Positions 41,031 to 46,192 of a stretch of DNA of 64,000 bases are shown one piece after another. The DNA lies in assembly GCA_963693365.1 (NCBI GenBank), contig CAVNZM010000013.1:4824140-4888139 (forward strand), in the 5' to 3' direction. Each line of letters opens with the position of its first letter. Position 1 is the stretch's first letter. Below the pieces are notes generated by a model. It made no database searches. It worked only from the letters and a program-made list of their open reading frames with translations, and was not told the origin of the DNA. This stretch comes from Amoebidium appalachense. Its lineage: Eukaryota; Protista; Ichthyosporea. The translations under genes were made by a program, and so were the position numbers.

Positions 41031-41764
41031 ATGGCCGGTTCCGATTTTCAAGAATGGCTCGGCACAACACAAGCCTACCCATATGCTAAACGTGCAACTT
41101 TTCATTTTTCCACCTCTTTCGATGCACACAACGTTTTTGCACATGGGCGGGTCCACGCTATAGAACGCATCGTTTTGGTGGGAAACAAAACTGCCGATTA
41201 TCCTGTCAGGCTCTCCATTCTACACAAGGACGAGCAACACGAAATTCTTATGTTTTTCAAAAAAGGCAAGAAAGGAGAGCAGTCAGGCTGGAAAATTAGG
41301 GAGGAAAAGTTCATAGCCGGAAAGATACCAGGAAACGTAATGAAAATTCTGAGACAGGGGGGGAAAGACTGGGAAGTTTACGATTTGGGGGCATATGCCG
41401 ACATACACAGAAAGACAATCGACTCCGGGTTCACGTTTGCTGCGGGCCCTGAATACAACGAGGATACCCCTACCCTTGCCAAGTTACTCTACCTTCTCAG
41501 AACATGCCCAATACCCGAAAAGGGGGATTCCCTTTCCATAAACGACGACCCAACACACAGACTCGAACTCAGTCACACAATTCGAACAAACATGACGGAC
41601 CGTGATTGCGTTCTGTTTTTTGGCGGGGTTCGTTATATCAGACTCCCTTCTCTCCAGAAGGCTGCCACCTTGTGGGCTGCCAAACGTCTTCGTCTTAACA
41701 ATTTCTCGGCCAGATTTGCGGCGGTAGCAAGCCCACTATCGAGGCTGGCGCCGCCTGCAGGTTG

Positions 41765-41799
<35 letters not shown>

Positions 41800-44611
41800 A
41801 CACACACACACATGCACACACACACACACACACACATGCACACACAAAAGGCATTCGGGCACACACATGCACACACACAAAGGCATTCGGGCACACACAT
41901 GCACACACAAAAAGGCATTCGGGCACACACATGCACACACACAAAGGCATTCGGTGACACACATGCACACACAAAAAGGCATTCGGGCACACACATGCAC
42001 ACACACAAAGGCATTCGGGCATACACATGCACACACACAAAGGCATTCGGTGACACACATGCACACACAAAAAGGCATTCGGGCACACACATGCACACAC
42101 ACAAAGGCATTCGGTGACACACATGCACACACAAAAAGGCATTCGGGCACACACATGCACACACACAAAGGCATTCGGGCATACACATGCACACACACAA
42201 AGGCATTCGGTGACACACATGCACACACAAAAAGGCATTCGGGCACACACATGCACACACACAAAGGCATTCGGTGACACACATGCACACACAAAAAGGC
42301 ATTCGGGCACACACATGCACACACACAAAGGCATTCGGGCACACACATGCACACACAAAAAGGCATTCGGGCACACACATGCACACACACAAAGGCATTC
42401 GGGCACACACATGCACACACAAAAAGGCATTCGGGCACACACATGCACACACACAAAGGCATTCGGGCACACACATGCACACACAAAAAGGCATTCGGGC
42501 ACACACATGCACACACACAAAGGCATTCGGTGACACACATGCACACACAAAAAGGCATTCGGGCACACACATGCACACACACAAAGGCATTCGGGCACAC
42601 ACATGCACACACAAAAAGGCATTCGGTGACACACATGCACACACACAAAGGCATTCGGGCACACACATGCACACACACAAAGGCATTCGGGCACACACAT
42701 GCACACACACAAAGGCATTCGGGCACACACATGCACACACACAAAGGCATTCGGGCACACACATGCACACACAAAAAGGCATTCGGTGACACACATGCAC
42801 ACACAAAAAGGCATTCGGGAACACACATGCACACACACAAAGGCATTCGGTGACACACATGCACACACAAAAAGGCATTCGGGCACACACATGCACACAC
42901 ACAAAGGCATTCGGGCACACACATGCACACACAAAAAGGCATTCGGGCACACACATGCACACACACAAAGGCATTCGGGCACACACATGCACACACAAAA
43001 AGGCATTCGGGCACACACATGCACACACACAAAGGCATTCGGGCACACACATGCACACACAAAAAGGCATTCGGGCACACACATGCACACACACAAAGGC
43101 ATTCGGTGACACACATGCACACACAAAAAGGCATTCGGGCACACACATGCACACACACAAAGGCATTCGGGCACACACATGCACACACAAAAAGGCATTC
43201 GGTGACACACATGCACACACACAAAGGCATTCGGGCACACACATGCACACACACAAAGGCATTCGGGCACACACATGCACACACACAAAGGCATTCGGGC
43301 ACACACATGCACACACACAAAGGCATTCGGGCACACACATGCACACACAAAAAGGCATTCGGTGACACACATGCACACACAAAAAGGCATTCGGGAACAC
43401 ACATGCACACACACAAAGGCATTCGGGCACACACATGCACACACAAAAAGGCATTCGGGCACACACATGCACACACACAAAGGCATTCGGGCACACACAT
43501 GCACACACAAAAAGGCATTCGGGCACACACATGCACACACACAACTCCCAATATTTACACACACCACCCACCACACACAGAGCAGGAAGAGAAGTTCCCA
43601 GTCGAACCCCAATCGCCCCGGTCCACGACACCCATCATCTCCAGACGTATTCCAACCTTTCGCTTGACACCTGACATATTGGAGAGGTACACACTGGAGC
43701 AGTTCCTGTACAAAATCGGCAAGTATGACGACGTGAGGAGGGCGGGGGCTGCGAGGCTAGTCCTACCCGAGGAGGTGAAGGAGGCACTGGCAGCAGCATC
43801 CCAGGAGCTGGATTTGCCCGGCAGACCCCACAACGTACAAAATCTGCAGGCAACAGAAAACAAAGACGTATATGCTCTGACGCATGAACTGGACCACGGT
43901 AACCTACCGGCCCCACAGGTGTGTTACTTGAGTTTTGGATGGAGAGGAAGCCTCACACCTAGCAATGTTTGCATTTACTTGGCCTGCCGAGAGACACTTT
44001 TTGCACGCCCCGGCCTCACACTTAGCAATGTTTGCATGAATTTACTTGGCTTGTTTTTGCACGCCCCGGCCTCACACTTAGCAATGTTTGCGTGATTTTA
44101 AAACTTGGCCTGCCGAGAGACACTTTCTGCACGCCCCGGCCTCGCATGCCCTGACTAAACATTATACTAACATTGCAACCCGTGAATTAGGGCAATGCAT
44201 CGTTGTCCGAGAGAGAGTTTTGGGACATGCTGGACGAGCATTGGCCTGAAAGCCGTCCCGAGGAACGGAATCAGTTGGGGAAACCTGTGTTTGAATTCCA
44301 CTACGCCAACGAGCACAGCATTCCACCTGGCACACGCACCCCCAGCGAGGTAAGCGGGCGAAGTTGCTCTGCACACCATTTCAGCACTTGCAACCTCCCC
44401 TTTGTGACCCCCAATCCCGCACATTGCATCGTTTGTATAGTTGCACCATGCCTCCGGACCGTAGCTATGTAGCTAAGTGCATGCCCATTCAGGTGGTCAG
44501 CGAGACCTACAAATGGATGCCCAATTTAAGGAAATTGGACTCTGTTCTTCATCGCATCCATGAATACCAGCACCTCGACGGGATATGCATTCCCATGTTT
44601 TACAAGTACTA

Positions 44612-44642
<31 letters not shown>

Positions 44643-45884
44643 AAAAAATCCTCACAAGAATTCAGAATAGTTCACTTGCCCGCACAGATTTCCCGTCCTC
44701 ACTCACCCTCCCGACCTCTAATTTTGAATTGACTACCCCATATCCACACACAAGAATTCAGAATAGTTCACTTGCCCGCACAGATTTCCCGTCCTCACTC
44801 ACCCTCCCGACCTCTAATTTTGAATTGACTACCCCATATCCACACAAGAATTCAGAATAGTTCACTTGCCCGCACAGATTTCCCGTCCTCACTCACCCTC
44901 CCGACCTCTAATCGAATCGACTTTGTTTCAATCTTTTGCAGGTCCCGCTATCTTGGTTTGTTCGGCCCACATCCAGAGGATGCTGCCTTCGGCAGTCTCA
45001 ACCTAATGGTTGACGGTCCGCACGGAAAACACTGGTATTCGATTAGCCCTGGCAGTCGAGATCGTGTCGAAAGGGTCCTTCGGGATATCCATCCGGATGC
45101 AAAGTCCAAGAAGCCGTGCCCTGGGTTCATGATGCATAAGGTAAGCAGCCAAATTAAGCAAAAGACACGGCACAAAGGCATTCGGGCACACACATGCACA
45201 CACACGACACAAAGGCATTCGGGCACACACATGCACACACACGGCACAAAGGCATTCGGGCACACACATGCACCACACACGGCACAAAGGCATTCGGGCA
45301 CACACATGCACACACACGGCACAAAGGCATTCGGGCACACACATGCACTTAAGCAAACACACGGCACAAAGGCATCGGGCACACACATGAACACCCAAAG
45401 GCATTCGGGCACACACATGCACACTATCATGTGCTTACACCCGGGGTGGGACAGAATATTTTTGTGAACCCGAGGCTGTTTGGAAAAAGGGGCATCCACG
45501 TCTACCATGCAGAGCAAAGGCCGGGCGACCTTATTTACACCCTGCCTGGGGCCTACCACATGGGGTTCGCCTCTGGCGCCCCACCTTGCCGAGGCGGTCA
45601 ACTTTGCAACTCGTGATTGGTTGGAACATTTGAACGGGAAGGTACCCCCGTTTTGCACATGCCCCGATCGCCAAAACGAGACATTCGAGGTACAACCCCC
45701 ACACCCCCCCCCCCAAAAAAAAAAAAAAAAAAAACGAGACAATTCGTTGGTCTGAAGGTAGTTGAAACAATCTATTGGTATCAAAGTAGTTACACACACA
45801 CCATTACACCCCCGGTATCAAAGTAGTTTGGGGGATTAACTATTAAGCACCTAATCTATCGGTCTAACAGTGTAACACACACGC

Positions 45885-45921
<37 letters not shown>

Positions 45922-46059
45922 CACACACACATGCACACATGCACTTAAGCAAACACACGGCACAAAGGCATTCGGGCACACACATACACACACACGGCAC
46001 AAAGGCACCTAATCTATCGGTCTAACAGTGTAACACACACGCACGCACACGCACACACG

Positions 46060-46132
<73 letters not shown>

Positions 46133-46192
46133 CAGCTCGACCTCCCTATTTTGAAACGTGAGATGGTGGACTATCGGATGCAGAAGCCGTGA
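41031..46192 (+). CDS. KDM4-like JmjN+JmjC histone lysine demethylase with an unrecognised 243-aa N-terminal domain; 7 exons; apparent +1 frameshift near 45580
   Basis: Phase-consistent GT-AG exons: 41031-41760, 43581-43918 (Jmj[19 protein letters not shown]), 44191-44349 (EREFW..HYANE), 44493-44605 ([18 protein letters not shown]), 44942-45140 ([21 protein letters not shown]), 45455-45689 ([19 protein letters not shown], then [14 protein letters not shown]), 46136-46192 (stop). Both the Fe ligands H-x-E..H and the KDM4-type Zn ligands C..H..CxC are present. Confidence 0.9.
41828..43542. repeat. 32-bp satellite (about 53 copies) filling intron 1 of the KDM4-like gene
   Basis: Unit aaggcattcgggcacacacatgcacacacaca with few variants; a 576-bp block is repeated (42274 versus 42850). 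Confidence 0.97.
44654..44912. repeat. ~96-bp tandem repeat (about 2.7 copies) in intron 4 of the KDM4-like gene
   Basis: acaagaattcagaatagttcacttgcccgcacag occurs three times. Confidence 0.93.

Follow-up and report, generated by a model that had tools for sequence, protein, structure and literature searches.

A KDM4-type demethylase gene with introns and an orphan first exon beside a block of viral-type genes in Amoebidium appalachense

Intron-bearing KDM4-like genes that lack PHD and Tudor domains have been described in 39% of the giant-virus insertions of Amoebidium, in hypermethylated regions that also hold core giant-virus genes (Sarre et al. 2024, PMC11244446). The insertions are reactivated by 5-azacytidine and the KDM4-like genes were proposed to counter silencing by H3K9me3, such that both the pairing of a KDM4-type gene with a giant-virus insertion and the anti-silencing idea are already published; the accessible text of that study reports no assay for the enzymes of this class. 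A search of titles and abstracts found no other paper on intron-bearing KDM4-like genes in endogenous giant viruses. The gene analyzed here, at 41031–46192 on the forward strand, lies in a 64,000-nucleotide stretch of the Amoebidium appalachense genome (GenBank assembly GCA_963693365.1, contig CAVNZM010000013.1, positions 4,824,140 to 4,888,139), referred to as the window, in which all coordinates are given.

Like the published genes, the window gene is multi-exon, sits amid intron-free viral-type genes, and has no PHD or Tudor domain, but where JmjC is the sole Pfam domain given for the published class, the window gene has an additional long N-terminal exon (PMC11244446). The accessible text describes no long unassigned exon of this type, though an extension might yet be visible in its Figs. 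2E and S6C, and mentions no palindrome, hairpin, or inverted repeat at the ends of the elements, whereas the window contains a 453-bp palindrome. The gene resembles human KDM4D and KDM4E in consisting of the catalytic core only, with Ala at the position of Ser288, a hydrophobic residue at Thr289, and no equivalent of Arg309 (PMC3308871), and differs from them in its sequence (exon 5 is about 34% identical), an additional N-terminal exon of 231–243 amino acids, six introns, and its viral-type context. With the canonical KDM4A–C it shares the iron triad, the 2-oxoglutarate Asn and Lys, and the C/H/CxC zinc site (PMC6010108), but not the PHD or Tudor domains, nor a JmjN domain detectable by profile.

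The gene has its exons, its iron, 2-oxoglutarate, and zinc ligands, and one spliced junction, and is positioned between host genes and an intron-free block of viral-type genes. It encodes a KDM4-type JmjC core without PHD or Tudor domains. On balance, it is moderately likely that the gene derives from the host and is carried along by an endogenous giant virus, with a product that would strip H3K9me2/3 and blunt the silencing of viral DNA, and with exon 1 as an added N-terminus. A host KDM4 core would have been taken up by the virus with its introns kept and its reader domains lost, a descent suggested by the retention of host-style introns, and exon 1 would have been added later. The enzyme would then remove H3K9me2/3 from chromatin, and viral DNA, whether incoming or integrated, would be silenced less; this putative anti-silencing role is a plausible one, in keeping with the KDM4D-like pocket described below. 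A preliminary description of the locus, made from its letters alone, had likewise proposed a captured host gene repurposed for anti-silencing, which agrees with a host-type KDM4 catalytic core adjoining viral-type genes, though the idea is not new (PMC11244446). The locus gives two openings onto the published class: its KDM4D-like pocket predicts that H3K9 is favored over H3K36, and its N-terminal exon would be missed by architectures based on Pfam.

The exon model, built by splice-site mapping and three-frame translation, has seven exons with GT-AG ends (Table 1), of which exons 1–5 and the beginning of exon 6 join in phase. An alternative phase-0 donor at 41724, for a junction of 41723 to 43586, would shorten exon 1 to 231 codons and leave the frame unchanged. 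A contig from run X13 starts at the exon 6 acceptor, with all of its loose 5' letters (30/30) corresponding to the end of exon 5 (45109–45138), and its match ends precisely at 45689, the donor predicted for exon 6. Most simply, this contig is a transcript joining exon 5 to exon 6; run X13 carries no RNA record, and the contig may instead come from an intron-less DNA copy. The contigs of three other runs continue into intron 5, and the remaining five junctions, including that of exon 1 to exon 2, are predicted only. An intron-containing KDM4-like gene, as first described, is therefore borne out by the seven exons, the JmjC core, and one exon junction in a contig. Two tandem arrays flank the gene: three near-perfect copies of a 67-bp unit (40779–40980) that end 50 bp 5' of the exon 1 ATG and may be a promoter element, and 4.4 copies of a 78-bp unit (46211–46601) immediately 3' of the stop codon.

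The catalytic core was compared with Pfam and PDB (Protein Data Bank) entries. The HPED motif is located at 44970–44981 and the third iron His at 45557–45559. All 37 PDB sequences matched by exon 5 at E ≤ 1 were KDM4A–D/Rph1-type chains (best, KDM4D, E = 0.005), and the alignment with human KDM4D (21/61 identities) places His, Glu, Asp, Asn, Lys, Cys, His, and Lys in register. Early exon 6 matches the Pfam JmjC profile above the cut-off (33.2 bits), and late exon 6 matches KDM4A–D in 36 of 37 PDB rows (E = 0.19–0.47) with the CxC aligned. Using the residue roles of PMC6010108, a JmjC domain with the H-x-E...H iron triad is present, with equivalents of all four zinc ligands (C234/H240/C306/C308) and of the 2-oxoglutarate ligands Asn198 and Lys206 in alignment, and with a candidate for Tyr132 in exon 3 that has no alignment support. 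The JmjC domain and the HPED..H triad of the preliminary description thus stand, while its JmjN domain does not find the same support: exon 2 had no Pfam match at E ≤ 10 and no KDM match in PDB, and its likeness to JmjN is putative. Exon 2 was found within none of 686 candidate longer proteins, and relatives of exon 5 in none of 19 viral and 595 metagenome contig stretches, the latter in searches for exon 5 with single-sequence seeds of low sensitivity. The gene is not a canonical KDM4, because its stop codon comes after 18 codons of exon 7 and neither a PHD nor a Tudor domain lies downstream; no PHD-type motif occurs on the + strand over 46190–48700, and the genes that follow the demethylase are unrelated.

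The phase compatibility first described for all seven exons fails within exon 6 in the window letters. The exon (235 nt between two phase-0 sites) loses its frame in a run of C (45578–45581) and reaches a stop at 45614, and both the AEAVNFA pocket motif and the CxC zinc pair (45654–45662) fall out of frame. In exon 6 contigs from all four public runs (4/4, from four samples) the sequence differs from the window at the C-run, the frame is unbroken, and the CxC pair is in frame, so that the C/H/CxC zinc site of the preliminary description holds in the runs but is incomplete in the window. The break can be inferred to be either an assembly error or a defect confined to this copy, and is most likely the former, because the contigs of all four runs are unbroken there. 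The same runs also have two substitutions in common relative to the window, giving three shared differences within about 240–270 aligned bases, each at the edge of or inside a single-base run, as is usual for errors in the consensus of long reads. Rather unlikely, and in part compatible with the preferred reading, is that this copy is a decaying pseudogene, with a real break in exon 6 and intact reads derived from other copies or isolates. Three shared differences are what a distinct copy or strain would show, the run contigs lose rare variants, and the viral-type block contains a short open reading frame (ORF) resembling just the C-terminal part of a neighboring Cys-repeat protein, but all three differences touch single-base runs and the form in the window is absent from every contig that spans the C-run. 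Four candidate mini-introns that would bypass the break were rejected, three because they delete the third iron His and the other because it would be a GC-AG intron of 25 nt.

The substrate pocket hints at a preference for H3K9 over H3K36. In KDM4D–F, Ser288 and Thr289 are replaced by Ala and Ile (S288A/T289I), and Arg309 has been proposed as one determinant of H3K36 activity (PMC3308871). In the window protein, the motifs AEAVNFA and CTCP correspond to Ala/Val at the Ser288/Thr289 positions and Pro at the Arg309 equivalent, while the equivalents of Lys241 and Asn290 are retained; it is the Ala/Val pair together with the lost Arg309 equivalent, as in KDM4D, that suggests the H3K9 preference. 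It seems improbable that the enzyme acts on another target picked by exon 1, whether by demethylating H3K36 or a methyl-lysine outside histones or by working as a protein hydroxylase. Such activity would suit the strong divergence from human KDM4D in exon 5, the Pro within the H-x-E motif, and the lack of detectable similarity in exons 2–4, a region that carries substrate-binding residues in KDM4A (PMC3308871), but it is disfavored by the retention of the pocket motif, of the equivalents of Lys241 and Asn290, and of the zinc site specific to KDM4.

The unexplained part of this otherwise known kind of gene is its long first exon, the joining of which to the enzyme is predicted only. None of 20,000 base shuffles left the 243-codon frame stop-free, the other five frames contain 4–13 stops, and the codon score is best in + frame 0, though weak. 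The product is basic (isoelectric point 9.45) and has no hydrophobic or membrane segment, and the GC content at third codon positions (GC3) of the exon is lower than that of the JmjC exons (0.50 versus 0.63, Fisher p = 0.002). As had been noted, the 243 residues have no assignable identity. They were found within none of 1,321 candidate longer proteins, matched none of 1.84 billion representatives at E ≤ 1e-3, had no relatives in PDB, NCBIfam, or PHROGs, and occurred in none of 7 viral and 64 metagenome contig stretches. Searches of the ESM Atlas with the whole product and with residues 5–135 returned nothing (recognition 1772, below the level of most known families), and the matches from tblastn (four plasmid and four phage, E = 0.4–8) were taken as chance. 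Two specific candidates were rejected: an HUH relaxase (Pfam PF03432, 17 bits against a cut-off of 24.6, E = 0.007), where the match covers profile positions 28–91 of 132 only and no relaxase is among the four weak plasmid matches, and a Tudor domain in residues 80–135, which had no Tudor match in Pfam or PDB at E ≤ 10, a short query with low sensitivity.

Exon 1 nonetheless probably belongs to the demethylase gene, as judged from the sequence, because Met is absent from exon 2, the donor at 41761 is a phase-compatible CAG|GT followed by poly-C as at donors 4 and 6, and the 12-base core of the intron 1 repeat is limited to introns 1, 5, and 6 (53, 6, and 1 copies, respectively, and 0 elsewhere in the window). 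Since exon 2 lacks a start codon, exon 1 most likely contributes the N-terminal third of the translated protein. Exon 1 could instead be a separate or truncated ORF, with the demethylase starting from another, unseen small exon, which would account for a length two to twelve times that of the other exons, a differing GC3, the junction to exon 2 without read support, and the failure to find either exon within a longer protein. This is doubtful, as the ORF is stop-free up to the repeat array and ends at the donor described, exon 2 offers no Met, and the intron 1 repeat is common to introns 5 and 6 only. If exon 1 is part of the gene, as preferred here, it would, at a guess, be a basic and soluble domain, added later, that tethers the enzyme to DNA or chromatin; this guess is based on the charge of exon 1 and the missing reader domains. 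The earlier suggestion that the exon supplies targeting gained no supporting evidence: there is no homologue, the exon 1–exon 2 junction is without read support, and single-sequence AlphaFold models reached a mean pLDDT of 31 and 36, with no usable fold obtained. Were exon 1 to target the enzyme, it would explain how a demethylase without readers locates viral DNA.

The surroundings of the gene change along the window. From position 1 to about 33.5 kb the DNA is host-type, microsatellite-rich, and CpG-poor, with small exons that have weak, sub-threshold Pfam matches to 6PF2K and RGS. Where the host-type DNA ends is a perfect palindrome with a GC-rich core, followed rightward by the 92- and 47-bp arrays, a coiled-coil ORF, the 67-bp array, and the demethylase gene. 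The observed/expected CpG ratio is 0.81–1.08 from 46 kb on, compared to 0.30–0.85 in the host part. The demethylase gene, which lies between the boundary palindrome and the viral-type block, is probably inside the left margin of the element; its placement inside a viral element in the preliminary description is thus likely, with the reservation that the gene is marginal and the extent of the element cannot be fixed from the window. The gene could instead be a host paralogue that has diverged, or a remnant that was domesticated, lying beside rather than within a viral insertion and serving host chromatin regulation. This would be consistent with the host-style introns with poly-C and CA repeats, the marginal position, an ORF to the left that has no viral homologue, and the couple of KDM4-likes that lie outside viral regions (Sarre et al. 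2024, PMC11244446). There is little probability in this, considering that host-type microsatellite DNA stops near 33.5 kb, that the palindrome, long-unit arrays, and an intron-free ORF intervene, and that intron-free viral-type genes come directly after the demethylase.

The palindrome is a candidate for the left end or telomere junction of the element, resembling an opened hairpin end, and may show how the genome ends and insertions of these viruses form; it may alternatively be a fold-back assembly artefact or a foldback element. A loose parallel exists in the endogenous phaeoviruses of Ectocarpus, in which an integrated giant virus carries a telRL-like palindromic site proposed to resolve into hairpin ends, but that site is internal and resembles the site of phage N15, whereas the palindrome in the window has 226-bp arms, is GC-rich, and is at the host boundary (PMC13236599). 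The window itself showed no resolvase. A more elaborate proposal joins the palindrome to exon 1, in which a tethering domain for DNA or chromatin, unrecognised until now, would have been fused by splicing to a captured KDM4 core in replacement of PHD and Tudor domains. The result would be a virus-aimed H3K9 eraser, encoded about 6 kb in from a genome end that derived from a hairpin and has the 453-bp boundary palindrome as its opened form; as a whole this is unlikely. Immediately left of the palindrome, 33530–34900 is unique DNA without microsatellites that may be either a host promoter region or a further part of the element.

To the right of the demethylase, the block of intron-free genes includes a T5orf172-like gene (weak), a Cys-repeat nuclease-like gene, MYND, C2H2, a DUF5906 primase, Fic, and a class-III aminotransferase-like gene. 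The primase matches PHROG 1156 (E = 3e-33), and a search for it in viral contigs gave 0/3. Relatives of the Cys-repeat protein occur on two IMG/VR contigs (191 and 127 kb) with EsV-1-7 motifs, one of which also has a P11 minor capsid protein of nucleocytoplasmic large DNA viruses (NCLDV) and a weak major-capsid match. Exact look-up of block proteins returned 0/10. Overall, a giant-virus origin of the block is likely.

Several results weigh against a virus-borne H3K9 demethylase with exon 1 as its N-terminus. The protein as assembled keeps the iron triad but ends before the zinc CxC, early exon 6 scores best against JMJ14/KDM5 chains in PDB with KDM4 weaker, and the JmjN domain is unconfirmed, with exons 2–4 matching no KDM in Pfam or PDB. 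The H3K36 determinants Ile71 and Asn86–Gln88 could not be mapped. Read support covers one of the six junctions (exon 5–exon 6), from a run with no RNA record, and none of the other five directly. The GC3 of exon 1 also differs from that of the viral block (0.50 versus 0.69, p = 2e-9), so composition does not show exon 1 to be viral. For the block itself, the relatives of the primase are 13 metagenomic proteins, all unnamed, and no capsid, PolB, A32, or VLTF3 was detected by Pfam among the 14 non-JmjC window sequences scanned.

Table 1. Positions of the demethylase gene and of surrounding features in the window
Feature	Position	Strand	Description
Exon 1	41031–41760	+	243-codon orphan coding exon; stop-free frame, best codon score in + frame 0
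Intron 1 (predicted)	41761–43580	+	Poly-C, then 32-bp × 54 tandem array (TRF)
Exon 2, putative JmjN-bearing	43581–43918	+	Phase fit; contains no Met
Exon 3 (predicted)	44191–44349	+	Phase fit; without database match
Exon 4 (predicted)	44493–44605	+	Acceptor picked by phase; without KDM match
Exon 5	44942–45140	+	JmjC: H-x-E-D iron ligands, Asn/Lys 2-oxoglutarate ligands, Cys/His zinc ligands; Pfam JmjC E = 0.04
Exon 6	45455–45689	+	Third iron His, methyl-lysine pocket motif, CxC zinc pair; Pfam JmjC E = 8e-8
Exon 7 (predicted)	46136–46192	+	18 codons, then stop at 46190–46192
tRNA-Arg (TCG)	27957–28032	-	In host part
Perfect palindrome, 453 bp	34907–35359	.	226-bp arms, no spacer; 226/226 identities, 1 gap; z = -43
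Tandem arrays, 92-bp and 47-bp	35615–38557	.	Between palindrome and first ORF
Coiled-coil ORF, intron-free, 236 aa	38820–39527	-	Left of demethylase gene; non-specific coiled-coil matches only
Intron-free viral-type block	48618–64000	.	Continues past window edge

Between the demethylase and the block, an ORF at 47220–48602 (- strand) encodes 20-residue repeats (60-bp × 12.6 array), then a hydrophobic segment, and then repeats of CPxC type that are rich in Cys, with no family above noise. Within the block, the Fic gene (59339–60136, - strand) and the divergent class-III aminotransferase-like gene (60701–62434, - strand) have the highest GC3 (0.75 and 0.83, respectively), which suggests a different origin for these two genes. 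The short ORF that resembles just the C-terminal part of the Cys-repeat protein (51457–52842) is located at 62773–63075 (- strand) and is likely a decayed paralogue.

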